This document shows, in pieces, positions 12,284-49,690 of a stretch of DNA of 64,000 nt. This DNA is from an uncultured Bacilli bacterium. Its GTDB lineage: Bacteria > Bacillota_I > Bacilli_A > RF39 > UBA660. Each line of letters opens with the position of its first letter. Positions within the stretch are counted from its first letter, which is position 1. The position numbers and the translations under genes are program-made. The notes beneath the pieces were generated by a model that saw nothing but the letters and a program-made list of their open reading frames with translations, ran no database searches and was not told where the DNA came from. The stretch spans positions 3,027 through 67,026 of the forward strand of contig CANRIB010000004.1 in the NCBI GenBank assembly GCA_947630575.1, written 5' to 3'.

Positions 12284-12320
12284 AAGTAATGGGAAAATAA
12301 AAATCTCATTACTTTTTTAA
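12284..12320. terminator. Bidirectional terminator between convergent genes
   Basis: AAAAAGTAATGGG...CTCATTACTTTTT hairpin flanked by A and T runs. Confidence 0.55.
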
Positions 12321-12776
12321 TTGTTTAATATATTTAGGATTGTCAGTTCTTCCTAAGAGATAGTCGGCAGAAATATTATATTTTTTACATATAGTGTATA
12401 GAAAAGGGGTTGCAATAATGTTTTTTCCTTTTTCATATGCACATATTACAGTTTTATCTGAGTTAATAACACTTGCTAATTTACCTTGTGTTAGTTTTTG
12501 TTCTTTTCGAAATTCTTTTAATCTACTACCTGATGTAATTTTATTTAATTTTTGATTATTGAAATTATTACTTTTTTTATTTGTTAAATTCAAAATATAA
12601 TCTAATGAAACATTAAAATAGTTGCAAAAATTGTATAAATGTTTAATGGGTATAGTTGTGTCTTCCGTTTCATAATGACTATATGTTATTGAAGATATTC
12701 CTAAATAATTTGCTATATCTTTTTGCATTATTTTGTTTTCTATTCTAATTTCTTTCATTTTGTTACCATAGTTCAT
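12309..12776 (-). CDS. XRE-family regulator with two tandem HTH domains
   Basis: Two HTH_3-like units (IMQKDIANYLGISSITYSHYE... and LTQGKLASVINSDKTVICAYE...), each ending in a DY(I/L)L motif. Divergent from paralog A. Confidence 0.85.
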   Translation of the reverse strand: MNYGNKMKEIRIENKIMQKDIANYLGISSITYSHYETEDTTIPIKHLYNFCNYFNVSLDYILNLTNKKSNNFNNQKLNKITSGSRLKEFRKEQKLTQGKLASVINSDKTVICAYEKGKNIIATPFLYTICKKYNISADYLLGRTDNPKYIKQLKK

Positions 12777-12850: not shown

Positions 12851-12879
12851 TTGACTTTTAGTATAGGAGAGTATATAAT
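12851..12879 (+). promoter_or_regulatory. Sigma-A-type promoter for paralog A (TTGACT-17-TATAAT)
   Basis: Read directly. The homologous arrangement precedes paralog C on the minus strand (48885-48913). Confidence 0.55.
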
Positions 12880-12890
12880 TTTAGTATAAG

Positions 12891-12904
12891 TTAGAAATTT
12901 CTAA
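12891..12904. promoter_or_regulatory. Perfect palindrome TTAGAAATTTCTAA in the paralog A leader
   Basis: Conserved with one mismatch in the paralog C leader (48860-48873), at the same distance from the -10 box. Confidence 0.4.
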
Positions 12905-12944
12905 TATGATTGATAATAAATCAATTATAAAGAAGGGAAGATTA

Positions 12945-14324
12945 ATGAAGGTAGAGAAGTTAAGTAAAGGAAAGAGTAAGAAAATTATATTAGCTATAAC
13001 AATAATAGTATTAGCAATAGGAATAATATATATAACAAATAGCAAAGCAAAATATCAAGTAACCAAAAGTGTGCAAATAGTTAATGGAGTAATAAATTAT
13101 TCTAGAGCAGATTTTAGTTTGTTAGGAGTGTATCAGCAACATGAAAAGAGTAGTAGTACTTATGATAGTGTAAATAATGTTCCTACGTCTGGTTATGTAT
13201 TAAATGAAAATAAAACATATTGTACAATAGGCTCAACAAAATATGAGGGAAAAACAAATTATAATAAACAAGGAATAACAATAAATTATGCTGGAGGTAG
13301 TGTAACATTTGGAGGAGTAAAAACTGCCAATACAAAATGTTATTTGTATTTTGATATTACTGATAATATTCCACCAGCAGAACGTGTTACTCAATTAGGT
13401 TTAACAGTAAGCCAATCGGGATGTCCAACTTATCCAACTCCGACAATAAGTTCAGCAGAAAGTTCTGCTACATTATTTTGTAAAGGTCAAGACGACGATG
13501 GAGATACATATTATTTTAGAGGGAAAGCAGATAAGAATTGGGTAAAGATAGGAAATACATATTGGCGAATCATCCGAATAAATGGAGATGGAACAATAAG
13601 ATTAATATATAATGGAACAAGTGCAGTCACGACAGGAGTATCAACTCAATATAAAACTGGAGCTTTTAATTCTATTTTTGGTGATAATGCCTACGTAGGA
13701 TTAAAATATACGATAGGTGTAAGAAATGGATTTAATACTCCATCAGATATGTTTAATACATTAAATACATTTTACAATGAGTATTTTGGAAGTGGTAAGT
13801 CTTTAGTATCATATGCAAATAAATTAGACTCAAGTGCGGGATTTTGTGGAGACAGAACTAGTAATACAGATTATTTAGCTCAAACAACAAATAATACAGG
13901 CGGAACTGGAGCAAACGAAACATACTATGGAGGTAGACTAAGATTACTTAATTCAAAGAAACCAACATTTAAATGTCCAGATAAAACTAATGATTTGTAT
14001 ACAAAAACAGGAGCAACACAAGGAAATAAGTCATTAACCAATTCAATAGGTTTAATGACAGTGGATGAAGCAATGTATGCCGGAGGTTTTGGAGGACAAA
14101 ATAACGATGGTTATTGGTTATATACAAATCAAAGCTATTGGCTTATGTCTCCGTCTGGCTTTGGTGGTGGTGCTGCTAACATGTGCGTTTTGTATTCGGA
14201 TGGTACTCTCGGCAACTATAGTGTTAGCCTTGCGCATGGTGTGCGACCTGTAATAAATTTAAAATCAAATACTATATTTACAGGAAATGGAACTACGAGT
14301 AGTCCATTTGTAGTGCAATTATAA
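12945..14324 (+). CDS. Membrane-anchored surface protein, paralog A of a 3-member family (C-terminal lectin-like YW..SP...GVRPV domain)
   Basis: Start chosen by homology to the paralog C N-terminus (MKVEKLSKG.. vs MEFKKLERN..; shared AKYQVTKS(V/A)QIVNGVINY). Shared motifs: YYFRG, YWRIIRINGDGTIRLIY, AGFCGDR, FKC, GLMTVDEAMYAGG, YWLMSP, GVRPVINLK. Confidence 0.8.
   Translation: MKVEKLSKGKSKKIILAITIIVLAIGIIYITNSKAKYQVTKSVQIVNGVINYSRADFSLLGVYQQHEKSSSTYDSVNNVPTSGYVLNENKTYCTIGSTKYEGKTNYNKQGITINYAGGSVTFGGVKTANTKCYLYFDITDNIPPAERVTQLGLTVSQSGCPTYPTPTISSAESSATLFCKGQDDDGDTYYFRGKADKNWVKIGNTYWRIIRINGDGTIRLIYNGTSAVTTGVSTQYKTGAFNSIFGDNAYVGLKYTIGVRNGFNTPSDMFNTLNTFYNEYFGSGKSLVSYANKLDSSAGFCGDRTSNTDYLAQTTNNTGGTGANETYYGGRLRLLNSKKPTFKCPDKTNDLYTKTGATQGNKSLTNSIGLMTVDEAMYAGGFGGQNNDGYWLYTNQSYWLMSPSGFGGGAANMCVLYSDGTLGNYSVSLAHGVRPVINLKSNTIFTGNGTTSSPFVVQL
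14136..14252 (+). other. G+C-rich variable-region-like block in paralog A
   Basis: Local G+C is far above the flanks. Occupies the same position (YW.MSP to GVRPV) as the blocks in paralogs B and C. Confidence 0.45.
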
Positions 14325-16643: not shown

Positions 16644-17165
16644 ATGAAAGAAGCTATAGGTGGTATATCTCTTTTTAATATAGTAATAGTTCTTATTTTA
16701 CTTTTTACAGGATATATTAGTTTATCAATTAATTATTCTAAGGCATATAATGTTAAAAATGAAGTTTTAAATGTTATTAGAAATCAGGGTGGTGTTTGTA
16801 CTGCAGATGGGGTAGCAACTGGTGATATTTGTTATAATTTTAAAGAACAAATTACAGATTATTTTAAAGAAGCTAGTTATAGAGCTACTGGAGATTGTGG
16901 CAGTGATTGGATTGGTTATACTAGAACGGGTGATTTATTATCACGAGGGGCTAAAAATGCTGCGTTTTGTGTTAAAGGAATAAAAGTTAATGCCAATTCA
17001 GAGCTTCCTAATGCACTATATTATCAAGTGAGAATATTTTATCAACTTGATTTGCCAATAATTAATAATATTTTTAATTTTTCAATTTTAGGTGAAACAA
17101 CGAGGGTTTATCAGCCTAATGAGTGTGATACTAGAAGTGCAAATTATTATTGGTGTGAAGGGTGA
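16644..17165 (+). CDS. TadE-like pseudopilin candidate
   Basis: 173 aa. MKEAIGG leader, hydrophobic helix, then YSKAYNVKNEV, homologous to the next ORF. 6 Cys. Confidence 0.5.
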   Translation: MKEAIGGISLFNIVIVLILLFTGYISLSINYSKAYNVKNEVLNVIRNQGGVCTADGVATGDICYNFKEQITDYFKEASYRATGDCGSDWIGYTRTGDLLSRGAKNAAFCVKGIKVNANSELPNALYYQVRIFYQLDLPIINNIFNFSILGETTRVYQPNECDTRSANYYWCEG

Positions 17166-17169
17166 TTAA

Positions 17170-17907
17170 ATGAGAACTACTATTGGTCAAACTTGGGTTA
17201 TGCAGTTAATGATTGTGTTTATTCTTTTGTTTGTGGCTTATATTGTTTTAATTCTTAATTATTCGCGAACAATTAAAGTTAAAAATGAAATGATAACATT
17301 AATAGAGAAGTATGAAGGATTAAATGATTATTCAATTGAGTCCATAAATGGTTATTTGAATAGTAATGGTTATGTTGCGACTGGTGTTTGTGTTACTAAA
17401 GAAGCTGAAGGTGTTTATGGTGGAACTGTAGATTCAGTTAAACTTGAAAAAGCTAAAGCTGGGAAAAAATATAGTTATTGTTTAAAGAAATATCAGGGAA
17501 CTAGTATAACTAATTATTATCAAGTTGCACTTTTTTATAAATTTAATTTACCAGTTTTAGGTAATGTTTCTGGTTTTACAGTTAAAGGAACAACTAATAA
17601 TTTTAAATCATTTGATGATGATTTATATTGTAATAATATTACCGGTACTTGTAATTCTTCATCATCAAGACCTAGTACAGATACAGGAGAGAGCATGTAC
17701 ACAGTAACCTTTAATCTTAATGGAGGCTATGGTTCTATTCCTAGTCAACAAGTAAGGACGGGTGGAACTGTTAGGATGCCGGCAAATCCAACTATGGCGG
17801 GGCATACGTTTAATTGTTGGGGATATTATAACAATGGACGTTTGACTACTTTTGATGTTAATACAAGAGTTGATAGAGATTTAGAATTAGTGGCAATATG
17901 GAAATAA
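17170..17907 (+). CDS. TadE/TadG-like pseudopilin candidate with C-terminal Listeria-Bacteroides (Flg_new) repeat
   Basis: 245 aa. The MRTTIGQTWVMQLMIVFILL N-terminus resembles RGQTLILFIILIPL of ORF 22184. C-terminus YTVTFNLNGGYG...GHTFNCWGYY...DLELVAIWK. Confidence 0.5.
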   Translation: MRTTIGQTWVMQLMIVFILLFVAYIVLILNYSRTIKVKNEMITLIEKYEGLNDYSIESINGYLNSNGYVATGVCVTKEAEGVYGGTVDSVKLEKAKAGKKYSYCLKKYQGTSITNYYQVALFYKFNLPVLGNVSGFTVKGTTNNFKSFDDDLYCNNITGTCNSSSSRPSTDTGESMYTVTFNLNGGYGSIPSQQVRTGGTVRMPANPTMAGHTFNCWGYYNNGRLTTFDVNTRVDRDLELVAIWK

Positions 17908-17934
17908 AGAAAGAAAAGTTTTTGGAGGGTTAAA

Positions 17935-18936
17935 ATGAATGTTATAGTGTCAAATAAATATCAAAATATGCTTGCAACATTAGATATTGATATAATTAAA
18001 AGTATTAATGGAGAGTTTGAAGTTGAAGATTTAGTTAGTCAATTTACAAATTTTTACTTTAATAAAATGATTATTGATGTAACGGCAATAAAGGGTTATC
18101 AAAATATAAAGAATATTCAAAAGTTATCAGTAAATTTTGATACGAGTAAGATAATTTTATTATTGGATGATTCCGCGATGGTTAACAGTGGGGCTTATTT
18201 ATCCCAATTAGTTTCGATGGGAATATATAATTTTACAAGAAATATAAATGCGGTTAAGTTTTTAATTGATAATCCTAATTCATATAAAGATGTTGCCCAA
18301 TATCATAATTTAAATGGAAATAGTACAGATAATGATAATCCAGTAAATTTTGATACTTTTGCTGGTTCGGGAAGTGGAGGTATGAGGATAGTTGGCTTTA
18401 AAAATGTAACTCTTCATGCAGGGGCTACTTCTTTGGTTTATATGCTAAAAAAACATTTGGAAGTTGCATATAATGTTATTGCAATTGAGGTAGATGGAGA
18501 AGACTTTAAATATTTTAATGATAAAAGCTTAAAGACCACAACTGCTTTAGATTTATCTTTTAATATTGCTAATAATCCGGATGCAGAAGTTATATTAATT
18601 GATTTAAATGAATCTAATCAAGAAAGTTTATGTAATGAAGTGGTTTATTTAATTGAACCAGGCTTAATTAAACTTAATAAATTGATTAGAAATGATAGAG
18701 AAGCTTTTGAAAAGTTAAAAGATAAAATGATAGTGTTAAATAAAAGTATTTTAACTAATAAAGATATTAGTGATTTTGAAAAAGAAACTAATAGTAAAGT
18801 CTTTTATAATATACCTTATGTTGATGATAAGAAAGAGCATGAACAAGTGTTGGAAGACTTTTTGGTAGCTTTAGGTTTTTCAAGATTAAATAATGGTGGG
18901 GGAAATAAAACTAAACTTTTTAATATATTTAAATAA
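17935..18936 (+). CDS. TadZ/CpaE-like protein: receiver-like N-domain plus ParA/MinD-like domain with degenerate Walker A
   Basis: 333 aa. The C-terminal half has a MinD-like layout, but HAGATS replaces KGGVGKT. Context is the pilin-like genes. Confidence 0.45.
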   Translation: MNVIVSNKYQNMLATLDIDIIKSINGEFEVEDLVSQFTNFYFNKMIIDVTAIKGYQNIKNIQKLSVNFDTSKIILLLDDSAMVNSGAYLSQLVSMGIYNFTRNINAVKFLIDNPNSYKDVAQYHNLNGNSTDNDNPVNFDTFAGSGSGGMRIVGFKNVTLHAGATSLVYMLKKHLEVAYNVIAIEVDGEDFKYFNDKSLKTTTALDLSFNIANNPDAEVILIDLNESNQESLCNEVVYLIEPGLIKLNKLIRNDREAFEKLKDKMIVLNKSILTNKDISDFEKETNSKVFYNIPYVDDKKEHEQVLEDFLVALGFSRLNNGGGNKTKLFNIFK

Positions 18937-21852: not shown

Positions 21853-22191
21853 ATGAGAAAAAAAGGGCAGGCACTAGTAGAATTTATAATAATATTACCA
21901 ATATTTTTAATGCTGTTTTTGGGTGTTATAGATTTAGGAAAAATATTTTATAATAAAATTATTTTGGAAAGTGCCATAAATGATGTAGTTTCTTTATATC
22001 AGGATGGTAAAAGTGAAGAAGAAATAAAAAATAAATTAGATTTAGATGATTCTAAGTTGGAAATAAATGATGATGGAAGTTATAAAGAAATTAAGATAGA
22101 AAAAGAAGTAGAGATTATTACACCGGGACTTAATTTAGTTTTAAATAGTCCTTATAAATTAGAGATTAAGAGGAGTATTATAAATGATTAG
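21853..22191 (+). CDS. TadE-like pseudopilin
   Basis: KKGQALVEFIIILPIFLMLFLGVIDLG N-terminus typical of TadE. Confidence 0.7.
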   Translation: MRKKGQALVEFIIILPIFLMLFLGVIDLGKIFYNKIILESAINDVVSLYQDGKSEEEIKNKLDLDDSKLEINDDGSYKEIKIEKEVEIITPGLNLVLNSPYKLEIKRSIIND

Positions 22192-22555
22192 TAATAAAAG
22201 AGGACAGACTTTAATACTATTTATTATTTTAATACCATTAATCTTGGGAGTTATGGCTGTGGTTGTTGATGTGGGGTTAATAGTTAGTAAAAGTAGTAGT
22301 TTAAAAGAAACAACAAGATTAGTTATTAAAGATAGTTTAAATAATGATTTAGGAGAAGAGGAAATTAAAGAATTATTTGTTAAGAATAAAATAGATGTTG
22401 ATAATTTAGAATTAGAATTAGAAAATGAGGAAATTCATGTTAAGAATAAAATAGAGATAGATAGTATTTTTGGGGCAATTATTGGGCTTAAAAAATACAC
22501 GATTAAAATAGATATTAAGGGGTATAAAGATAATAATAAAATAGTTATAGATTAG
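22184..22555 (+). CDS. TadE/TadG-like pilus assembly protein
   Basis: KRGQTLILFIILIPLILGVMAVVVDVG N-terminus (TadG-like N-terminal motif). Confidence 0.6.
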   Translation: MISNKRGQTLILFIILIPLILGVMAVVVDVGLIVSKSSSLKETTRLVIKDSLNNDLGEEEIKELFVKNKIDVDNLELELENEEIHVKNKIEIDSIFGAIIGLKKYTIKIDIKGYKDNNKIVID

Positions 22556-22564
22556 GGTGAAGCT

Positions 22565-23329
22565 ATGAATAATAAAGGAATGTCAATATGTATATCATCG
22601 GCTAAAGGTGGAGTTGGTAAGACTATTACAACGCTTAATCTTGCTGGTTTATATGAAGTATTAGATAAAAAAGTTTTAGTGATTGATTTTGATTTAGCTA
22701 GTGGAGGAATTGCAACTGCTTTAAATATTGAACCACAAAAAAGTGTTTATAATTTTGTTGATGATTATAATAATAACCGTTATAAAGATTTTAAAGATTA
22801 TGTTATTAGGTATGATGATAAAATAGATATTTTAGCTAGTCCTAAAGATCCAAGACAAGCAGGTAAAATAAATCCTAAATATGTAGAATTAATACTTGAT
22901 AAAGCAGTATTTAATTATGATATTGTGTTAGTGGATACTAGTCATGTACTTAATGATTTTAATATATTTACGATGGATTTAGTAGATAAAATTATTTTTA
23001 TGGTTACTAATGACCCAATGGATTTAAAGAATATGAGAAGTTTAATTGGGATATTAAAAGATGTTAATTATAATAATTATAAAGTGGTTTTAAATGAAAG
23101 TGTCCATCCATTTAAGAAATATTTTAGTTTGTATGATATTAAAAATATTATTAGAAATAATATAGATTATGTTATATCTAAAGATTTTTATATTAAAAAT
23201 ATTGATAGTATTATTATGAGTGGAAAGATTATTACTTTAGATAGTAAAGTGCCTTCGGTTTTTAATAAAGATTACACAACCTTAATGCAATTAATAACAG
23301 ATATGTATAAAGAGGAGGTGCAAGAATGA
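22565..23329 (+). CDS. TadZ/CpaE-type ParA-like ATPase (no receiver domain)
   Basis: Walker A SAKGGVGKT. Position between the pseudopilins and cpaF. Confidence 0.8.
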   Translation: MNNKGMSICISSAKGGVGKTITTLNLAGLYEVLDKKVLVIDFDLASGGIATALNIEPQKSVYNFVDDYNNNRYKDFKDYVIRYDDKIDILASPKDPRQAGKINPKYVELILDKAVFNYDIVLVDTSHVLNDFNIFTMDLVDKIIFMVTNDPMDLKNMRSLIGILKDVNYNNYKVVLNESVHPFKKYFSLYDIKNIIRNNIDYVISKDFYIKNIDSIIMSGKIITLDSKVPSVFNKDYTTLMQLITDMYKEEVQE

Positions 23330-24771
23330 AACAGAGTTTAAGAGATGCATTTGATATAGAAATTAAAGAGAAAGAAACTAAGATTTTAAATGATTATGAA
23401 ATATTTAAAGATAAAAAATTACTGGATAAGTTAAGAACAGAGATAGTAGAAAATTTAATTGATAATGAAATGCCTAAGGATATTAGTTTAAATGAATGGA
23501 TTAATAATGAGATAGATAAAACAGTTGAAGGTTATGATTTATCTAATTTAGAAAGAAGTCATTTATTTAATTTAATTGATAATGAAATAAATGGATATGG
23601 GCCGATATCTGAGCTTTTAAATAGTAAAAATGTAACGGAAATAATGGTTAATTCTCCTAATGAAATATATATTGAAATAGATGGAGTATTAACGAAAGAT
23701 GAAAGTGTATCATTTATTAATGATGAACATATTATTAGAACAGTTCAAAGATTAATACAACCTTTGGGAAGGACTATTGATGCTTCTAATCCGATGGTTG
23801 ATTCAAGACTTATGGATGGGTCAAGAATTAATGCGGTAATACCTCCTTTATCAACTAAAGGGCCGGTGGTGACAATTAGAAAATTTAAAGAGTCTATGAG
23901 TAATATTGATGAATTAATTAGAATTGGAACTTTAACTCCTTATATGGCAAGATTTTTGGATGCGGCAGTAAGAGGAAAATGTAATATATTAATATGTGGT
24001 GGTACTGGTTCTGGTAAGACTACTTTACTTAATATTTTAAGTGGTTTTATTGGGGATAATGAAAGAATTATTACAATTGAAGATGCAGCAGAATTAAAAT
24101 TAAAGCAAAACCATGTTATATCTTTGGAAACAAAAATGCTTAATTATGAGCAAAAAAATGAAATTACAATTCGGGATTTAGTTATTAATTCTCTTAGGAT
24201 GCGGCCAGATCGAATAATTGTGGGAGAAGTAAGAGGTAAAGAAGCTTTTGATATGTTGCAAGCAATGAATACAGGACATGATGGATCTCTTACGACTATG
24301 CATGCGAATGGTCCTCAAGATGCTTTAAATAGACTGGAAACAATGGTTTTAATGGGAGGGTTAGAAATTCCTATTAAGGCTATTAGAGAATATATTATTA
24401 GTGCGATAGATTTAGTTGTTAATATTGAACGGATGAGTGATGGAAGAAGAAAAGTTACAAATATTGCAGAGTTAGAAGATTTTACAGATGGTGAAATTAA
24501 ATTAAAAGAAATATTTGCTTTTAAACAAAAGGGACTTACAGAAACAGGGGAAGTTGATGGAGAATTTATTTTGTATGATGGAGTTCCAAAAGTATATAAA
24601 AAGATAAAAGCGCGGGGAATTTTAGATATTGAAGATATTTTTTATCCAGATAAAGTAGTTAAAGAACAACATAATTTTATTAAAAATGGAATTAAAGAAG
24701 AAGAACAAAATGATAAACCAAAAATAATGTATTATCGGGGAAAATATGAGGGAATTGGACCTAGAGAATAG
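23326..24771 (+). CDS. tadA: CpaF/TadA secretion ATPase
   Basis: Walker A GGTGSGKTT, TIEDAAEL, RMRPDRIIVGEVRG and GHDGSLTTMHAN motifs. Confidence 0.92.
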   Translation: MKQSLRDAFDIEIKEKETKILNDYEIFKDKKLLDKLRTEIVENLIDNEMPKDISLNEWINNEIDKTVEGYDLSNLERSHLFNLIDNEINGYGPISELLNSKNVTEIMVNSPNEIYIEIDGVLTKDESVSFINDEHIIRTVQRLIQPLGRTIDASNPMVDSRLMDGSRINAVIPPLSTKGPVVTIRKFKESMSNIDELIRIGTLTPYMARFLDAAVRGKCNILICGGTGSGKTTLLNILSGFIGDNERIITIEDAAELKLKQNHVISLETKMLNYEQKNEITIRDLVINSLRMRPDRIIVGEVRGKEAFDMLQAMNTGHDGSLTTMHANGPQDALNRLETMVLMGGLEIPIKAIREYIISAIDLVVNIERMSDGRRKVTNIAELEDFTDGEIKLKEIFAFKQKGLTETGEVDGEFILYDGVPKVYKKIKARGILDIEDIFYPDKVVKEQHNFIKNGIKEEEQNDKPKIMYYRGKYEGIGPRE

Positions 24772-24779
24772 GAGATATT

Positions 24780-25778
24780 ATGACAGGAGTAAGACTAGTA
24801 CAAATATTAATTATGGTTATTATTTTAGGAGTAGTTATATATTTACTTCGTCTTTCTCGTGCGGTAAAGTTAGAAAAAAGAATTGGTAAATTTGCTATAG
24901 CAAATGAAGAAATTGATAGTGAATTATCTTTAATTGATAAGGGTTTGGAATTTATTAAAAAGATAATAAAATTATTTTCAAAAATATTAAAAAAATCAGT
25001 AGTATTAACTAAATATGGAGAAAAGTATAATAAATATATTTCTTTTAAAAATAAAGATAAAATAGAGGGGATAGACTATGTATCTTTGAAGTTTTTGATA
25101 GCTATAATAGTATTAGGATTAAGTGCTATTACGGCTTTATTTCATAAAATTAATTTAAGTTTTCCTGTAGTGATATTAATATTTTTAATTAGTTTTTTTG
25201 GAATTGATATTTATTTCTATATAGAATTTAGGAAGAGAAGAAAAAAAATTGAAGATGATTTATTAAAAGCTATTATTATTATGAATAATGCTTTTCAAAG
25301 TGGTCGCAATATTATGCAGGCAATAGAAGTTGTTAAAAATGAGCTTGATGGTCCTATTCAAGATGAGTTTAAAAAAATATATTTAGATATTACTTATGGG
25401 TTAGATTTAGAGCTTGTTTTTGATAGATTTTATGAAAGAGTAAAATTAGAAGATGCTAAGTATATTAGTTCATCTCTTAGTTTACTTAATAAAACTGGGG
25501 GAGATATAATAAAAGTGTTTTCTTTAATTGAAAAGTCAATTTTTGATAAAAAGAATTTAAAAAATGAGCTTAATAGTTTAACGGCTTCTAGTCAATTTGT
25601 GTTTAAAATGTTGATTTGTTTACCAGTTTTATTAATAGGGGTAATATTTATTTTAAATCCTACATATTTTACACCTTTATTTACGACACCTTTAGGTATT
25701 TTAGCTTTAGTATTTACAATTTTATTATATATTCTTTATATTTTAGTTATTAAAAGAGTTTTGGAGGTCGAGTTATGA
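24780..25778 (+). CDS. tadB: TadB-like platform protein (T2SSF domain)
   Basis: Polytopic membrane protein following cpaF, with overlapping stop/start. Confidence 0.8.
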   Translation: MTGVRLVQILIMVIILGVVIYLLRLSRAVKLEKRIGKFAIANEEIDSELSLIDKGLEFIKKIIKLFSKILKKSVVLTKYGEKYNKYISFKNKDKIEGIDYVSLKFLIAIIVLGLSAITALFHKINLSFPVVILIFLISFFGIDIYFYIEFRKRRKKIEDDLLKAIIIMNNAFQSGRNIMQAIEVVKNELDGPIQDEFKKIYLDITYGLDLELVFDRFYERVKLEDAKYISSSLSLLNKTGGDIIKVFSLIEKSIFDKKNLKNELNSLTASSQFVFKMLICLPVLLIGVIFILNPTYFTPLFTTPLGILALVFTILLYILYILVIKRVLEVEL

Positions 25779-26473
25779 AAAGTAGTTTAAGTTACAAGAT
25801 TTATCCTAAAACAACGATTAAAAGAATAGAAAAGAAAGTAAAATTATTGGGGGTAAGTACAGATTTTTCAGTGGTATTTTTCTTAAATGGAAGATTATTA
25901 TTATGTATATTAGTATTTATATTAAGTTTAGTTTTCTTTAAATATGGTTTTATTATTGCACCAATTTTAACTTTATTAGTTTATTTGGGAATGGAAAAAA
26001 TATGTTTAGATTATGAAATAAAAAAGAGAGGAAAAAGATTAGAAAAACAAGCTTTATTCTTTATGGAAGTTTTAGTTTTAACTTTAGAGGGAGGAAGAAA
26101 TTTAGAAAATGCTTTAAATTTAACTATTGCGAATATTGATTCAGAATTAGCTTTAGAATTTAAGCAAGTTATAGAAGAAGTGCATTTGGGTAAGAGTTTA
26201 AATGAGAGTTTAGAAGCTATGAAAAAAAGAATTCCAAGTGAAGTTATAAATAATACAATTCTTAATATGATACAGGCTAATACTTATGGAACAAATATAA
26301 CTGTTTCTATGTATAATCAAATTGAATTTTTGAGAAATAAACAATTATTGGATGTTAAAGCCGAAATTGCTAAATTACCAACAAAAGTAAGTGTGATAAG
26401 TGTTTTATTTTTTGTACCAATCATGTTACTTATTATTTTAGCGCCGGTTTTAATTAAACTTATTAGTAATTAG
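25775..26473 (+). CDS. tadC: TadC-like platform protein (T2SSF domain)
   Basis: Polytopic membrane protein, coupled to tadB. Confidence 0.8.
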   Translation: MKSSLSYKIYPKTTIKRIEKKVKLLGVSTDFSVVFFLNGRLLLCILVFILSLVFFKYGFIIAPILTLLVYLGMEKICLDYEIKKRGKRLEKQALFFMEVLVLTLEGGRNLENALNLTIANIDSELALEFKQVIEEVHLGKSLNESLEAMKKRIPSEVINNTILNMIQANTYGTNITVSMYNQIEFLRNKQLLDVKAEIAKLPTKVSVISVLFFVPIMLLIILAPVLIKLISN

Positions 26474-29515: not shown

Positions 29516-29650
29516 GATATCCTCCTAAATATATCTTAACAAAAATTACGTATATAGAAGAGACGTTTATATATTCGGTACAGAAATGCAAAAAAAGTAT
29601 ATACAATTAAAAAAAATTAAGTTATAATGTATAAAAATAGGAGTGATTAT

Positions 29651-31849
29651 ATGACTAAAGAAACTAAAAGATTATTTATTGTTGAAGGAATTATTTTGCT
29701 GATTGTTTTAACTATTGGTATTGGTTATGCTTTTTTATCAACAAGTGGTAAACAAGAATTAGCCAATACTTTTACAGCAGGTTGTTTAAGTATAACAATA
29801 GAAGAAGAGGGAAGAGCAATAGATTTAGAAAATGCTTATCCCATAACAGATATAGAAGGATTAGAACAAGATGGATATACTTTTAAAATAAAGAATAATT
29901 GTAGTAATGATACAAATTATCAAATTAATTTAGAATCATTAAGTAATCCAACAGCAGATACAACATTAAAAGCCGATTATGTAAGAGTATCCCTTTCAAG
30001 TGATACAATGGATAATTTAATAACAACATTAAAAGAAAATGATGTAGCAACATATCATTCAGAAAATGCTTATGTATCTTATAATCTTTATAGTGGAATA
30101 TTAAAAGGAAGTGCAAGTAAATCATTTACTTTAAAAGAATGGGTAGAATATAATACAACCAAAGAAGAAGGAGCAAGTAAAGAATATAAATCACAGATAA
30201 ATGTAGTAAGTGATACAAGAGTAGAAGTAACACCAAAACCAGAGATAACATTTGCTTATAGTGGAAATACGATAAAAGGAACAATAGCAGGTAGTGCAAC
30301 AGATATAACATATTGTGAAACAAAAGATAATAGATGTGAACCAAAACAAAATGGAGAAATACAAGAACAAACAACCTCAATAACATTAAATGAAGAATCA
30401 AAAACAAAAGAAGTAACAACCAAATTAGGAGTATTAAATGTATATCAAGATTATAAAAGAATGATATGTGCAAAATTGGATAATGGAAAGACAATATGCA
30501 GTAATCCAGATACAGGAAGTGGGACACCAGATTTTAGCATTAATAGTGATTACGCTGATAATGATTTCAAAGTATGTACATATAAGGGAATTAGTGTTAA
30601 CACAGGATATGCTCCAGAAGAAATGTGCCAGTTAGTTTTTGAAATAACTAGAAATGGTAGTTATTATTATCAAGATGGTTTAATGGAATATGAACTTAGA
30701 ATAAGTTCTGATTCTAAGCGTGTAGGTTTAGCTATTTGGGATGAAGAAAAACAAATATGTACTTACAATGGAAATGAAATCAAAACTTGGGGTGAACAAA
30801 GGATTAACCAAGAAAATTGCTTGTTTGCTTATGAACAAAATGGTAAATATATTACTTTTAATCTAATAGATGAAATGAAAGAGACTTATAATGCAGATAA
30901 TATAAATTTTTTAGGAGCGGGTACTTTAAGTACTGCTGTTGGAAAAACCGGAATATATGAAACAAAAGATGAAGAAGGAACAAGTTATTATTATAGAGGA
31001 GCAGTAGAAAATAATTATGTAGAGTTTGCAGGATTTTATTGGCGAATAATTAGGATAAATGGAAATGGTTCCATACGTTTAATTTATAGTGGAAAAAAAG
31101 ATGAAGTAAATGAAATAGGTAAAGAAACAATATTAAAAAATGGATATAAGGATACAAATGGTTATAAAATGATAACATTAAAAGATGAAAGAAAATATGG
31201 TACCTATAATGGAGATGTTAACGATAATGCCTATGTAGGATATATGTATGGAACACCTGGTTCAAATAATTATACTGATGCTCATGAAAATATAAATGAA
31301 AGTAATGTTAAGAAAGAATTAGATAATTGGTATATAGCAAATTTAAAACAAGTAGAAGATAAATTAGATACACAAGCCGGCTTTTGTAATGATAGAAGTT
31401 TAGCAGAAGGATATGAAAATGTTGGATATGGAACGAAAGAAACATATTATGGAGCATCGGATAGAATAAAAAATAAATATCAGCCAACCTTAAAATGCGT
31501 TAATAAAGATAATGATTATTTCACATGGAAGGGACATGCCAATACTGGTAATAAAGTATTAACCAATCCGATAGGATTAATCACAGCCGATGAAGCAATG
31601 TATGCTGGAGCGAATACTGTTCCGAATGATACTTATTATTTATATACAGGTCAGAATTATTGGACAATGTCTCCGTATGACTTTAACGGCAGCTATGCTG
31701 GCGTGTTCTGTGTGAGTTCGTTTGGCTACCTCGGCTACTACTACGTGGACAGCACGAACATCGGTGTGCGCCCAGTAGTAAATGTGGACCCTAATAAAGT
31801 AAGTATTTCTGGAACTGGTACTATAGATAATCCTTATCTTTTCTCTTAA
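29651..31849 (+). CDS. Surface protein paralog B: SipW-type signal peptide/TasA-like N-region plus the family core and C-terminal lectin-like domain
   Basis: Start MTKETKRL with a TAGGAG RBS (ORF track starts at 29627). GYAFLSTSGKQELANTFTAGCLSI resembles the SipW-cognate signal class. Core motifs: YYYRG, FYWRIIRINGNGSIRLIY, AGFCNDR, LKC, GLITADEAMYAG, YWTMSP, GVRPVVNV. Confidence 0.8.
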   Translation: MTKETKRLFIVEGIILLIVLTIGIGYAFLSTSGKQELANTFTAGCLSITIEEEGRAIDLENAYPITDIEGLEQDGYTFKIKNNCSNDTNYQINLESLSNPTADTTLKADYVRVSLSSDTMDNLITTLKENDVATYHSENAYVSYNLYSGILKGSASKSFTLKEWVEYNTTKEEGASKEYKSQINVVSDTRVEVTPKPEITFAYSGNTIKGTIAGSATDITYCETKDNRCEPKQNGEIQEQTTSITLNEESKTKEVTTKLGVLNVYQDYKRMICAKLDNGKTICSNPDTGSGTPDFSINSDYADNDFKVCTYKGISVNTGYAPEEMCQLVFEITRNGSYYYQDGLMEYELRISSDSKRVGLAIWDEEKQICTYNGNEIKTWGEQRINQENCLFAYEQNGKYITFNLIDEMKETYNADNINFLGAGTLSTAVGKTGIYETKDEEGTSYYYRGAVENNYVEFAGFYWRIIRINGNGSIRLIYSGKKDEVNEIGKETILKNGYKDTNGYKMITLKDERKYGTYNGDVNDNAYVGYMYGTPGSNNYTDAHENINESNVKKELDNWYIANLKQVEDKLDTQAGFCNDRSLAEGYENVGYGTKETYYGASDRIKNKYQPTLKCVNKDNDYFTWKGHANTGNKVLTNPIGLITADEAMYAGANTVPNDTYYLYTGQNYWTMSPYDFNGSYAGVFCVSSFGYLGYYYVDSTNIGVRPVVNVDPNKVSISGTGTIDNPYLFS
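31658..31777 (+). other. G+C-rich variable-region-like block in paralog B
   Basis: About 52% G+C by hand count in an otherwise AT-rich gene. Scaffold nucleotides are identical to the block in paralog C. Differences are concentrated in NNC/NNT codons. Confidence 0.55.
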
Positions 31850-39073: not shown

Positions 39074-39105
39074 AATGATAAATTTAAATTATCATTTTTT
39101 TTTTT
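39074..39105 (+). terminator. Intrinsic terminator
   Basis: AATGATAA...TTATCATT hairpin followed by an 11-T run. Confidence 0.75.
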
Positions 39106-39109
39106 GAAA

Positions 39110-40344
39110 GGTTGTGTTAAACTTTATGACTGATAAACAAAAAAGTGGTATAATAGAGATGCCAAATAAAAATTGTAGAAAGGAAGTATCCTTAATCAGC
39201 TAGTTCATCTACAGTTTTTATTTGGCGATATTATACTGATTGGAGCTAGCTGATTAAGGATATTTTTATGTAGTATGAAAATAGAGGAATTATTAAAAGA
39301 ATTAGATCCAGTAACAATCATTGAATTTAAAAATTATTTATTAGAAAATTTATCTGATTTATGTTCTAAAAAAAATTCAAATTCAAAAATCATATCTAAC
39401 TTTAAACAAGAAGAAATGTTCTGTGAAAAATGTGGTTGTAAATTATATAAAAATGGAACAACTAAAAGTGGCATTCAAAAATATATTTGTAGTGGATATG
39501 GAGTAACTTCTTCACAAACAACTGATACAATAATTTGTCATAGTAAATTATCATTTGAAATATGGAGGAATGTTATAGATAATTTACTAAATAGTTTTAG
39601 TTTAAGAAGAATAGCTGAAGAAAATAATATTTCTCTTTTAACATCTTTTAGATTAAGGCATAAAGTTTTATATGCTTTAAAACATTTTATAGAAAGTATT
39701 AATTTATCTGGAGAAATACAGTCAGATGAAAAGTATTTTTCAATTAATTTAAAAGGGACAAAAACAAAAAACATGCCAAGATATTCTAAAAAAAGAACAT
39801 CAACGAGTTCACCTTACAGAGGCATAAGTCATCATAAAATATGTGTAGTTTCAAGTATAGACGAAGAAGATAATCTATTATTAAAGATAGTCGGTTTAGG
39901 AAGATGTACAACTGATATGCTAAACCAATCGCTTGGTCAGAAAATAAACAAAGCCAAATCAATAACGGCCGATAGTGCGAGTGCTTATCAAGAATTTTGT
40001 AAAAGCAACAATTTAGTATTAAATGCTATTCCATCTGGTTTTCATAAAAATGATATTTATAATATATCAGAAATAAATGGAGTTCACTCTCAACTGGAAA
40101 CTTGGTTCAGGAAATTTAGAGGTGTATCAACTAGACACTTACAAGAATATTTAGATTGGTTTGTTTATATTTTTACTATGAAAAAAAGATTCATGTTAAA
40201 TAAAATAAAAACTGAATCTTATTCAAGAATTATAATAGACAATAATTATATAAAAACTAAAGATATTTTTTCAATTAAAATGCCTATTGATTTAAATGTT
40301 GCTTATGCTGAATACATTAATCAGTCATAAAGTTTAACACAACT
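39110..40344 (+). mobile_element. IS1595-family insertion sequence (ISXO2-like transposase), apparently intact
   Basis: Terminal inverted repeats of about 23 bp (GGTTGTGTTAAACTTTATGACTGA / TCAGTCATAAAGTTTAACACAAC). Flanking 8-bp direct repeat TTTTGAAA at 39102-39109 and 40345-40352. Inserted right after a terminator. Confidence 0.8.
39275..40330 (+). CDS. IS1595-family DDE transposase
   Basis: 351 aa with an N-terminal Zn-finger CEKCGC...YICSG and a DDE_Tnp_IS1595-like core. The stop lies inside the right IR. Confidence 0.85.
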   Translation: MKIEELLKELDPVTIIEFKNYLLENLSDLCSKKNSNSKIISNFKQEEMFCEKCGCKLYKNGTTKSGIQKYICSGYGVTSSQTTDTIICHSKLSFEIWRNVIDNLLNSFSLRRIAEENNISLLTSFRLRHKVLYALKHFIESINLSGEIQSDEKYFSINLKGTKTKNMPRYSKKRTSTSSPYRGISHHKICVVSSIDEEDNLLLKIVGLGRCTTDMLNQSLGQKINKAKSITADSASAYQEFCKSNNLVLNAIPSGFHKNDIYNISEINGVHSQLETWFRKFRGVSTRHLQEYLDWFVYIFTMKKRFMLNKIKTESYSRIIIDNNYIKTKDIFSIKMPIDLNVAYAEYINQS

Positions 40345-40510
40345 TTTTGAAAAAAAGTGAAAATTTACTAATTTTATGTTTTCTGTAGACAGATTTTGTA
40401 ATATCTGCTTAGACAAAAATATAAAATCTGCTAGAAGATTTTAGTAAATTTGCCTCTTGACCAAAAAATATTTTATGTTATATGATTGTAGCATAGAAAG
40501 AGGCGAACAT

Positions 40511-47424: not shown

Positions 47425-48831
47425 TTAGCTTGGTACAAATGGACTTCCTGATTTTCCATTTCCTGTAAATGTTGTATCAGCCTTCAGATTTATTACTGGG
47501 CGCACACCATACGCGCTGTTCTCGCTGCCGAAAGTGAGGTTGCCATTCAAATTCACATAGAACACGTAAGCATAAGTGCCGCTAAACTTATACGGAGACA
47601 TTGTCCAATAGGCAGAATTTGTATATAAGTAATATGATTGATTATTGCTTCCTCCAAAGCCTCCTGCATATACTACTTCATCAGCTGTTATTAATCCTAC
47701 TGGATATGTTAAACTTTGTGTTCCTTTTTCTGCTTTTCCATATGTAAATAAATCCTCTTTATTTGTACATGTGAATATTGGGGCTTGTGGATTTTGCCAA
47801 CTTCCACCTTTATAGAATCTTATATAAGGAGCATAATATGTTGTTGTCGTTCCTGTTCCTCCCCCTGTAGTAGTTCCTGTATTATTTGTATATGATGTTC
47901 TATCTGCACAAAATCCTGCATTATTATCTATTTTACCATTTCCATTTGACCATTCGTCTAGTAGATTCGTTTTAAACCACTCATTTGCTCTATCTGCTGC
48001 ATAACTGTTTGTACCTTTTCCATGTACATTACTATCTGCATATTGATATCCTACATATTTATTATCATTAAATTTACCATCTGAAGTCGCATAATAAAAT
48101 GTATTTGCAGATCCAACTGTTATTTGAGTGCCTGTTCCTGTTGTTCCTGGTGGAGTAGTAGAATTCAATGTAGTTGTTCCTGCATATATTAATCTTATCG
48201 TTCCATCACCATTTATTCGGATGATTCTCCACCATATACTTTTATTATCACTTGTTGTTCCATATCTTACCCAATTATCATCTACTTTTCCTCTAAAATA
48301 ATATGTTGTTCCATTATCATCTGTTCCACTATACATGATTGAATTACCATTGCTATCTTTATGTTCTGAAGTATCTGTACTTGAAAAACTTGTTTGGCCT
48401 TGCTGTGGATTTCTGCTATTTACTAATTCAGTAATTGTTATTGGTTTTATTTTAAAATATAAAGTACATTTATCTCTTTTCTTTAGCTTACTAAATGTAT
48501 GATTACCACCTATTGTTTTTAATACTGCTCCTGTATCTTCGTGTGTATCGTCTATCATACATTTACTTTGGCTTTCGTCTATTTCATAACCAGTAGTTGG
48601 TACTTTATCTGTTATTTCATATCCTCCAGTATCATTTTCTTTTTGAATTTCAACTATCATAAAATCATATGGTTTATAGTTTATTACACCATTGACTATT
48701 TGAGCACTTTTGGTTACTTGATATTTGGCTCTTGACCTTAATGATACTACTGTTGTTATTATTGCTATTAATACAACTAAAACTAATAATACTTTTTTAG
48801 TATTATTTCGCTCTAACTTCTTAAATTCCAT
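47425..48831 (-). CDS. Membrane-anchored surface protein, paralog C (C-terminal lectin-like domain)
   Basis: 468 aa. N-terminus and leader are homologous to paralog A. Motifs: YYFRG, WWRIIRINGDGTIRLIY, AGFCADR, FTC, GLITADEVVYAGG, YWTMSP, GVRPVINLK. Confidence 0.8.
   Translation of the reverse strand: MEFKKLERNNTKKVLLVLVVLIAIITTVVSLRSRAKYQVTKSAQIVNGVINYKPYDFMIVEIQKENDTGGYEITDKVPTTGYEIDESQSKCMIDDTHEDTGAVLKTIGGNHTFSKLKKRDKCTLYFKIKPITITELVNSRNPQQGQTSFSSTDTSEHKDSNGNSIMYSGTDDNGTTYYFRGKVDDNWVRYGTTSDNKSIWWRIIRINGDGTIRLIYAGTTTLNSTTPPGTTGTGTQITVGSANTFYYATSDGKFNDNKYVGYQYADSNVHGKGTNSYAADRANEWFKTNLLDEWSNGNGKIDNNAGFCADRTSYTNNTGTTTGGGTGTTTTYYAPYIRFYKGGSWQNPQAPIFTCTNKEDLFTYGKAEKGTQSLTYPVGLITADEVVYAGGFGGSNNQSYYLYTNSAYWTMSPYKFSGTYAYVFYVNLNGNLTFGSENSAYGVRPVINLKADTTFTGNGKSGSPFVPS
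47494..47610 (-). other. G+C-rich variable-region-like block in paralog C
   Basis: About 47% G+C by hand count. The first 21 nt and last 15 nt are identical to block B. Internal differences are mostly at codon positions 1-2. Confidence 0.55.
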
Positions 48832-48884
48832 GACTTTGATTCCTTCCTTATCAATTATATTAGAAATTCCTAACTTATGCTAAA

Positions 48885-48913
48885 AGTATATCACATAAGC
48901 TAGCTAAGTGCAA
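48885..48913 (-). promoter_or_regulatory. Promoter TTGCAC-17-TATACT for paralog C
   Basis: Read on the minus strand. Same spacing to the conserved leader palindrome as in paralog A. Confidence 0.5.
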
Positions 48914-49115: not shown

Positions 49116-49278
49116 TTTATGTAAATTAATGTAAAAAACATTTGACCAAAATATCCTTGAGATTTTATAATCTAATTAAGAGGCATAGTTTGGTGTTTTA
49201 TTCCTCGGTTCATATTAAGATATAATAATATAGAAAGCGAGGTGAGGTCCATGATTAAACTTAATGATAAGGAGAATT

Positions 49279-49338
49279 ATGGAGTACTTGATTGTACTTA
49301 TTTTGATTCTGGTACTAATTGCCAGAATTTTAAGATAA
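49279..49338 (+). CDS. 19-aa hydrophobic peptide MEYLIVLILILVLIARILR (type I toxin-like)
   Basis: AAGGAGA RBS. Followed by an 11-bp perfect hairpin (49350-49375) and a T-tract hairpin. A convergent antisense promoter lies downstream. Confidence 0.4.
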   Translation: MEYLIVLILILVLIARILR

Positions 49339-49339
49339 C

Positions 49340-49426
49340 TAACATAAATATAGAACACCTGAATAGGTGTTCTATCCAAATAAACTTGGACTGAGGACAT
49401 CATAAGTGCCTCTTTTTGTTTGTCCT
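49340..49426 (-). ncRNA. Candidate antisense sRNA 1 (about 85 nt)
   Basis: Minus-strand promoter TTGCAT-18-TATAAT (49433-49462). Three predicted hairpins; the last is ATAGAACACC...GGTGTTCTAT followed by a U-rich tail. Confidence 0.35.
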
Positions 49427-49456
49427 GTATATATTATATACTAAAATATAGATAAA

Positions 49457-49513
49457 ATGCAAGTGTTTATTTTAATTTTGGTATTAGTTGTTAGTTTTAG
49501 ATTGATAAAATAA
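49457..49513 (+). CDS. 18-aa hydrophobic peptide MQVFILILVLVVSFRLIK (second copy)
   Basis: Aligns without gaps over 12 residues to the first peptide with conservative changes (I/V, L/V, R/K). No clear RBS, so possibly leaderless. Confidence 0.3.
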   Translation: MQVFILILVLVVSFRLIK

Positions 49514-49589
49514 TAGAACACCTGAATGGGTGTTCTATCCAAACACATTTGGACTTAAGACACCATAAGTGCTTCTTTTTTTATGTCCT
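49503..49589 (-). ncRNA. Candidate antisense sRNA 2
   Basis: Second copy of the repeat, about 85% identical, with minus-strand promoter TTGCAT-17-TATAAT (49596-49624). Confidence 0.3.
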
Positions 49590-49690
49590 ATATATATTAT
49601 ATACATAAAATATTAAAAATGCAAATAATTTTGGTTATTAAAAGTTTATTATGTGTTATAATAGAAATGGATATTAGAGGAGGTATATAA

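Follow-up and report, generated by a model that had tools for sequence, protein, structure and literature searches.

The window analysed here is a 64-kb stretch of DNA from an uncultured Bacilli bacterium that contains three paralogous genes, A, B and C (Table 1), each encoding a protein with a hydrophobic anchor at the N-terminus and, at the C-terminus, a domain that ends in …YW(T/L)MSP…GVRPV(I/V)N. A sequence-only reading of the window had picked out a G+C-rich block at the C-terminus of paralog B, paired with an equivalent block in paralog C, as variable regions (VRs) of the kind rewritten by a diversity-generating retroelement (DGR), in which adenine-directed mutagenesis would act from a template repeat (TR) rich in AAC and AAT. 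Our analysis supports the DGR reading of the block. We consider it highly likely that the blocks of B and C are VRs of DGR targets, and most likely of remote targets fed by unlinked template-RNA genes.

Table 1. Features of the window that bear on paralogs A, B and C (ORF, open reading frame; HTH, helix-turn-helix)
Feature	Coordinates	Strand	Description
Paralog B, 740-aa putative target protein	29627..31849	+	ORF; N-terminal hydrophobic anchor, long middle part, C-terminal DUF6273-like domain (~441-740)
Paralog C, 468-aa putative target protein	47425..48831	-	ORF; N-terminal membrane anchor, DUF6273-like domain
Paralog A, 472-aa homologue	12906..14324	+	Equivalent block ~14121-14270
Putative VR of paralog B	31658..31777	+	120 nt, 51.7% G+C, 19% A; nhmmer match to template-RNA profile
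Putative VR of paralog C	47494..47610	-	117 nt, 47.0% G+C; nhmmer match to template-RNA profile
Double-HTH XRE-family regulator	12309..12776	-	Divergent from paralog A; NCBIfam RstR- and XRE-type matches
Upstream region of paralog A	12873..12925	+	Inverted repeat; 85% the same as 48839-48891 upstream of C

The block of paralog B has the position, length, sequence and base composition that had been described. The window as a whole has 26.7% G+C and the genes of paralogs B and C 30-33%, and adenine falls from 42% in these two genes to 19-23% in their blocks. The two blocks begin with the same 21 nt (TATTGGACAATGTCTCCGTAT) and end with the same 15 nt (GGTGTGCGCCCAGTA), again as described. Between B and C, a codon alignment of the blocks comprises 39 aligned codons and a one-codon indel, rather than the 28 codons of the hand alignment, and contains 27 substitutions distributed 10/13/4 over codon positions 1, 2 and 3. 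The 23 changes at positions 1-2 and four at third positions agree with the earlier tally (about 26, split 22 and 4), and their excess at positions 1-2 over the flanks is significant (p = 0.02). Where both proteins have the same amino acid (Met and Trp excluded), the codon is identical at 20 of 20 sites in the block versus 68 of 101 in the remaining aligned domain (Fisher p = 0.0016), which confirms that the scaffold codons agree even at synonymous sites. Only the figure of about 70% identity just outside the block was too high: the flanks are 52-60% identical in nucleotide sequence. The pattern in the B and C blocks is real and not a product of chance.

The same scaffold occurs in other bacteria. 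Searched against genome contigs, a degenerate scaffold pattern matched three metagenome-assembled genomes labelled 'uncultured Bacilli', each match being the C-terminus of a homologous protein (related loci and contigs retrieved for comparison carry L-numbers below, and homologous target proteins P-numbers). The shared scaffold reads TCT CCG TAT … TAT GCT NNC GTG TTC NNT GTG NNT TCG NNT GGC NNC CTC … GTG … GGT GTG CGC CCA GTA; its fixed codons are identical across homologues codon by codon, and the NNC and NNT codons vary freely. It is also found in L009-L013, L021 and L022, and a protein database search returned more than 6175 homologues of paralog C, the best of them 66% identical. The orthologue of paralog B in L003 is syntenic, with the same GH31-like gene and then the gene for leucyl-tRNA synthetase (LeuRS) downstream. 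The LeuRS proteins of the two genomes are only 71% identical in amino acid sequence; the block shows 76% nucleotide identity and 22/24 same codons, versus 55% and 52/99 upstream of it. Repeated copying from a conserved template would produce such fixed, G+C-rich, A-free codons (GTG TTC, GGC, CTC, CGC) in genomes of 26-33% G+C. The conservation expected of a DGR scaffold is thus kept, at synonymous sites, in other species and in two phage genes.

These phage genes lie on two IMG/VR contigs (L004:2079-2669 and L005:9449-10114) and encode DUF6273 proteins of 196 and 221 aa that carry the core of the VR scaffold, …GTG TTC NNT GTG NNT TCG AAT GGC NNC CTC … GGT TTG CGC CCA GTA. Neither a TR nor a reverse transcriptase (RT) is present in L005 (the whole 14.2 kb) or in the 8.9 kb examined of the 32-kb L004 contig, and the phage genes may be rewritten by a host-encoded system. 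The phage contig L004 and the bacterial locus L022 come from the same sample, 3300006217.

The AAC/AAT-rich template that had been predicted exists as non-coding copies in related contigs. Metagenome contigs were scanned with a pattern requiring AA at the variable codons, which returned three contigs with an intergenic match, and a profile made from the matches was then used to find further copies. Nine were obtained, two each in L006, L009 and L014 and one each in L007, L008 and L010. A typical copy reads TCTCCGTAT AAC TAT AAC AAC GGT TGG GCT AAC GTG TTC AAT GTG AAT TCG AAT GGC AAC CTC …, with the remainder … CTC AAC TGG AAC AAC GTG AAT AAC ACG AAT GGT GTG CGC CCA ATA TCC. VR and template copies have in common a G+C-rich 3' element, GGT(G/T)TGCGCCC, followed by AGTA in coding copies versus AATA(TCC) in non-coding ones: all readable non-coding copies have the boundary CC(C)AATA and 11 of 11 coding copies CCAGTA. 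We infer that this element, together with the differing next base, would act as a site for initiation of mutagenic homing (IMH).

Each template is part of a unit of ~300 nt comprising a TATAAT-like box, the template, a spacer hairpin, a closing stem and a terminator. The TATAAT-like -10 box stands 6-10 nt before GGTTAATC(T) in all seven copies with an intact 5' end, and the 3' strand of the closing stem, (A)GATTAACC, is complementary to that 5' end. In the spacer, a stem TATCCT/AGGATA encloses a variable hairpin; the terminator is an A+T-rich hairpin with compensatory changes. Complementarity is conserved in the closing stem and the outer spacer stem, where only wobble changes (of the G-C to G-U type) occur. 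The copies are often in tandem, and in several cases (L010, L014) the contig breaks within the array. Their neighbours are rnpA-yidC-jag-amidase and a 399-aa ORF of no assigned family (L007, L008), an oxidoreductase gene and an XRE gene (L009), uvrA (L014) and a gene that by eye is DUF1016-like (L006). On the near-identical contigs L007 and L008, from sister samples, the copy at L007:5524 differs from that at L008:4788 in lacking 12 nt, among them the 5' strand of the closing stem (GGTTAATCTAA); in the L007/L008 template, GGTGTGCGCCC is replaced by a longer hairpin-forming insert (ATGTCCTGTTAGGCGCTTGACAGGGC). These copies may be inactive or variant.

Searched against the window with nhmmer, a profile of the template RNA matches paralog B at 31669-31777 (E = 2.8e-16) and paralog C at 47599-47494 (E = 5.7e-19); the match to paralog A at 14147-14260 is far weaker (E = 7.8e-8). 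Neither this profile nor blastn at word size 7 found a block copy or template in the window besides the three VRs. A scan of genome contigs with a 5' VR pattern returned coding VRs only, but it was unable to find templates since TGGACAATG and 5' scaffold codons, which formed part of the pattern, are missing from templates. Template- and spacer-specific patterns had zero matches among IMG/VR viral contigs, blastn of the template RNA had none among GenBank phages and PLSDB plasmids, and tblastn of the C-terminal target domain had none among GenBank phages. Rfam recognized no family except tRNA in the template loci and the window. Among targets that adjoin templates (L008, L009, L010, L014), the VR scaffold has drifted (GTA TTT, GGT, AGA CCT GTT), and among those far from templates (B and C of the window, L002, L012, L022) it is intact, in what is a small sample.

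Homology of VR B with the template family extends from TCTCCGTAT (31670) to GGTGTGCGCCCA (31763-31774), with the G at 31775 (CCCAGTA) as a VR-type 3' boundary, and that of VR C from TCTCCGTAT (47598, reading down) to GGTGTGCGCCCA (47508-47497). The closest relative found, L009, whose target is 66% identical to paralog C, has two tandem templates of different lengths. In template 1, 10 codons separate CTC from GGTGTGCGC, and its end, …ACG AAC ATC GGT GTG CGC CCA, is also that of VR B (compared with the template copy at L009:4482-4684); template 2 has nine codons in this interval and ends …ACG TAT GGT, like VR C. The core of VR C begins with 30 nt, GTGTTCTATGTGAATTTGAATGGCAACCTC, that the non-coding template copy of L010 matches exactly. 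As B and C match these two length classes, of 10 and nine codons, they are better read as targets of two template variants, and such variants would explain the one-codon indel between them. The proposed pairing of B with C thus holds in that both blocks are VR-like; a single template common to both fits less well, and the two are probably not a pair fed by one template.

Variation in the VRs is concentrated where the templates have adenine. Compared with a consensus of four homologous, non-cognate templates from other organisms, the columns that vary among six VRs amount to 19/22 at template-A columns versus 22/50 at others (p = 8e-4). Between VR C itself and this consensus there are mismatches at 9 of 23 A sites and at 5 of 49 non-A sites, differences of the latter kind being expected with non-cognate templates. 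Amino acid composition leads to the same view. In 93 distinct VRs from homologues, Lys makes up 0.6% of residues versus 6.2% in the rest of the proteins, and Lys, Glu, Gln, Met and Trp together 5.5% versus 15.6%; no change of adenines turns AAC or AAT into a codon for any of these five. Lys, Gln and Glu are almost absent, as would follow if the NNC/NNT codons derive from AAC/AAT, and Tyr, Ser, Phe, Val and Gly are enriched. Both results are in line with the adenine-directed mutagenesis that had been proposed.

Polymorphism in relatives is likewise focused on the VR. Over 21.3 kb, comparison of L022 with L023, whose source metagenomes are unrelated, gives 35 differing columns, and the VR accounts for 24 of these; between L012 and L021, 32 of 35 differences fall within the gene region. 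At the protein level, P0089 and P0126 differ at 18/30 VR columns and 2/408 outside, and P0078 and P0154 at 12/26 VR columns and 0/414 outside. Two-codon indels also separate alleles of one target, which is what the use of different template variants would produce.

We also modelled the C-terminal domain of paralog B (residues 441-740) with AlphaFold2, using 78 homologues, and obtained a mean predicted local distance difference test score (pLDDT) of 90.6 and a predicted TM-score (pTM) of 0.89. The only significant Foldseek match of this model in the PDB is 9qa6, the IgA peptidase of Thomasclavelia ramosa (E = 4e-6), whose N-terminal domain is annotated as DUF6273 (PMC12402451), and matches in BFVD are mostly 'DUF6273 domain-containing' phage proteins; TM-scores are modest throughout, at 0.3-0.4. 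The Pfam DUF6273 family (PF19789) has a gathering score of 23.5 bits, which paralogs A (17.8 bits) and C (21.2 bits, E = 2.8e-4) do not reach, with only the last ~50 profile positions aligned, and B gives no match. Many homologues have a precomputed PF19789 match, and the L004 phage protein passes at 29.2 bits. According to the model, the C-terminal domain would thus be DUF6273-like, with the same fold as DUF6273-annotated proteins. DUF6273 is a published DGR target scaffold, C-type-lectin-like, with the VR at its C-terminal end (PMC10743442, PMC11792537). The suggestion that the domain resembles known DGR scaffolds therefore holds for DUF6273; Foldseek gave no direct match to Mtd or TvpA.

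Paralog A stands somewhat apart from B and C. Its block is still A-poor, with 46-50% G+C, and its scaffold has drifted at synonymous sites (GGT GTG CGA CCT GTA, with GTT and GGT replacing GTG and GGC); the gene was probably a target once, or is one that a diverged template serves. The regulator gene divergent from paralog A has counterparts elsewhere: in L001, L007-L016 and L022-L024 the target is preceded by an HTH_3/HTH_19 gene of divergent orientation, and such pairing accompanies most homologous targets. Upstream of paralog C, the place of the XRE gene is taken by a small ORF from 48966 that is ribbon-helix-helix-like by eye. Within the 53-nt upstream stretch that A and C have in common lies the palindrome TTAGAAATTTCTAA, and the stretch may serve both genes as an operator or promoter.

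The rest of the window is ordinary chromosome, with nrdDG, spoVA genes, scpAB, a tad pilus locus, obg, feoB, a GH31-like gene, leuS and an insertion sequence (IS). The tad locus (16644-18936 and 21853-26473) lies ~3 kb upstream of the long paralog B. In another lineage (L017-L020), a 794-aa member of the target family (L017:10001-12385) is directly upstream of a tad/flp pilus operon encoding TadE, a CpaE-like protein, CpaF, TadB and TadC; the two arrangements point to a possible link between target-family proteins and the tad pilus. An IS-like unit at 39098-40356 has 40-nt terminal inverted repeats (90% complementary) around a 351-aa ORF (39275-40330) with Cys-rich N-terminal motifs. At 49251-49640, an element of ~97 nt is present in two tandem copies (49350-49446 and 49513-49609; 87% identical), each opening with a perfect hairpin, ATAGAACACCTGAA(T/G)(A/G)GGTGTTCTAT, and each preceded by a tiny hydrophobic ORF, MEYLIVLILILVLIARILR (49279-49338) and MQVFILILVLVVSFRLIK (49457-49513). 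In layout the pair resembles duplicated type I toxin-antitoxin modules; Rfam gave no match to these tandem elements. The window's other strong G+C spike (60141-60277) was considered as a VR or TR and rejected, as it encodes the Ser/Gly-rich C-terminal tail (…SSGGGSSGGGSGGGGGGSW) of a DUF2207-like protein, a 782-aa membrane protein (57929-60277).

If B and C are remote DGR targets, one or more template-repeat RNAs would be encoded elsewhere in the genome. As in the relatives, such a gene would start with a -10 box, GGTTAATC(T), a template of ~130 nt rich in AAC and AAT, and GGTGTGCGCCC-AATA; these would be followed by the spacer hairpin (TATCCT…AGGATA), the strand (A)GATTAACC that is complementary to the 5' end, and, last, the terminator. 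An RT acting in trans would copy the template into complementary DNA (cDNA), misincorporating opposite adenines, and this cDNA would take the place of the stretch between TCTCCGTAT and GGTGTGCGCCCA in the target. The 3' boundary and the direction of transfer would be set by the G+C-rich element together with the differing base that comes next. As a result, ~17-20 NNC/NNT codons would be rewritten on the ligand-binding face and the A-free scaffold codons left untouched, with B and C corresponding to the two template length variants. In this account B and C, and A in the past, are surface proteins with a membrane anchor that end in a DUF6273 (C-type-lectin-like) domain, and such targets are probably adhesins or receptors. 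This account draws on the VR signature, the template-type copies, adenine bias and VR-confined polymorphism of the relatives, and the fold. As neither a cognate template of this genome nor an RT was found, we infer both of these, any Avd, the action in trans on free-standing template RNAs, and present activity in this organism.

Several findings weigh against this account. In the window, neither an RT-motif regular expression nor reading of all ORFs of at least 100 aa revealed an RT. The related loci were searched by precomputed Pfam matches on called genes and by phmmer with an approximate Brt query; RVT_1 is absent from the Pfam families of the called genes, and no RT lies within ±10 kb of ~20 homologous targets or beside any template copy, over 326 kb in total. 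The sequence-only reading was therefore right that the window has no RT and no template; as to its statement that an Avd-like gene is missing, no Avd/HRDC-type accessory gene was seen beside the templates, where no dedicated search was run. Downstream of the VR, B, L012 and L022 have no conserved hairpin better than in shuffled sequence, and the signal in C is at the gene end; a hairpin or cruciform at this position is not universal among DGRs. The closing stem and outer spacer stem of the template RNA show no covariation, which leaves structural support weak. No locus contains an exact template/VR pair. On the contigs with both template and target (L008, L009, L010, L014), several of the mismatches between the VR and its neighbouring template are at non-A sites, and VR C has a few changes (AAG, GAG, ACT) that A-mutagenesis cannot explain relative to the available templates. 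Finally, although heterogeneity in relatives is confined to the VR where alleles differ, as anticipated, most clusters at 90% identity have one VR that is invariant across samples (P0121 on 76 contigs), so diversification would be rare or episodic.

The main alternative, which we regard as unlikely, is that the targets are fossils: the blocks would have been written by a DGR in the past, the RT, the templates or both would since have been lost from this genome or its lineage, and B and C would be frozen alleles. The window without RT or template is in line with this, as are the invariance of the VR over many samples in most clusters and the decay of the scaffold in paralog A and in targets adjoining templates. 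There is also precedent in Treponema denticola isolates with DGR-type targets but neither RT nor TR (PMC4891356). However, the scaffolds of B and C are intact at 20 of 20 synonymous sites and match templates of species whose LeuRS is only ~71% identical, a match to distant species which implies that copying continued after the lineages split and from which the last event cannot be dated. Moreover, differences in the relatives' 21-kb loci are almost confined to the block, and 64 kb is a small part of a genome.

A much less probable explanation is switching of cassettes independent of any RT, in which silent donors replace the block by gene conversion, as in pilS/pilE or vls. Donors in tandem and in length variants (L006, L009, L014), two-codon indels between alleles of a single gene and the lack of an RT anywhere near would all suit such a mechanism. 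The donors, however, are near-uniform AAC/AAT at the variable codons and the recipients have all four bases at exactly the same positions, so that conversion alone cannot create the diversity of the recipients; each donor also belongs to a conserved promoter-stem-spacer-terminator unit, as is typical of RNA genes, and transfer in one direction is indicated by the A/G difference fixed at the 3' boundary. Ordinary evolution of paralogues, with positive selection on binding loops and a scaffold fixed by conversion or by structural or codon constraint, is scarcely credible: short tracts can homogenize between paralogues of one genome and the scaffold residues are structurally conserved, but this would leave unexplained the identical G+C-rich, A-free codons across species and phage genes at 27% G+C, the non-coding AAC-rich copies and the near absence of Lys, Gln and Glu from the block.

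The remote-target DGR that we favour can be compared with known systems. In the DGR of Bordetella phage BPP-1, the order is mtd-avd-TR-brt and AAC codons are rewritten specifically at adenines; a G+C-rich element closes the VR and the TR at their 3' ends, with divergence right after it (IMH/IMH*), and the sequence before the TR pairs with the downstream spacer. The proposed AAC-codon rewriting at adenines, the IMH/IMH*-like 3' element and a template RNA with pairing between upstream and spacer sequences are alike here; unlike BPP-1, there is no linked avd or RT and no detectable hairpin downstream of the VR, and the target fold is not that of Mtd.

Remote DGR targets and action in trans are established (PMC5758913). 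The TvpA system of T. denticola and other 'Lineage 4' DGRs (PMC5758913, PMC4891356) are similar in not being phage-borne, in having targets scattered tens to hundreds of kb from the RT with AAC-type codons at the C-terminus of a lectin-like domain, and in that some strains keep targets without RT or TR. In contrast to the formylglycine-generating-enzyme (FGE)-sulfatase-type C-type-lectin (CLec) fold of those targets, the fold here is DUF6273, and our relatives have several free-standing, often tandem templates of different lengths that do not adjoin an RT. DUF6273 DGRs of gut phages and prophages (tentaclins; Faecalibacterium prophages Lelie, CP11, Roos and Pioen; PMC10743442, PMC11792537) use the same target domain family, with a C-terminal VR and a C-type-lectin-like fold. 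They are, however, compact phage cassettes with target, TR and RT together, whereas the targets described here are chromosomal, membrane-anchored and XRE-paired, with no RT or TR within 10 kb. The DGR of Trichodesmium erythraeum has an abundant non-coding template RNA of ~265 nt with its own promoter and at least 12 target genes (PMC4143802), and is thus alike in having the template as a separate RNA unit that serves several targets. There the template adjoins the RT gene; in our relatives the 4-6 kb on either side of a template contain unrelated genes (flanking genes being rnpA, yidC, jag, amidase, oxidoreductase and XRE), and several template variants coexist.

More tentatively, and with rather less confidence than an even chance would warrant, we propose a split DGR of low-G+C gut Bacilli, in which autonomous, multi-copy template-RNA genes unlinked from the RT serve dispersed genes for surface proteins and apparently also small phage genes. 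Different templates could then act on a single target, which would account for the allelic indels, and diversification would have two tiers, choice of template and then adenine mutagenesis. On the contigs compared, such a system appears to differ from published DGRs in templates that are unlinked from the RT, multi-copy, of several lengths and organized as self-contained RNA genes; in a large chromosomal target family paired with XRE regulators; and in the same scaffold appearing in phage genes without a TR or RT of their own. The novel features of template organization come from the related contigs rather than from the window itself. If the proposal is right, a split DGR would serve three targets in a 64-kb window, in a family with more than 6000 members in public data.

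To our knowledge, most surveys of DGRs anchor on the RT gene and then seek TR/VR pairs close by. With free-standing templates and with targets tens of kb or more from the RT, this class would have been under-counted, and thousands of DUF6273 surface proteins of uncultured gut Bacilli would be concerned. The anatomy proposed here is testable: a template RNA of ~300 nt with a closing stem and spacer, a boundary of CCCA|A in the template and CCCA|G in the target, and template variants of different length to which the alleles of a target can be assigned. With matching blocks present in phage genes as well, it may be asked if one diversification machinery serves host and phage alike, and the system as a whole would bear on surface variation of these gut bacteria.

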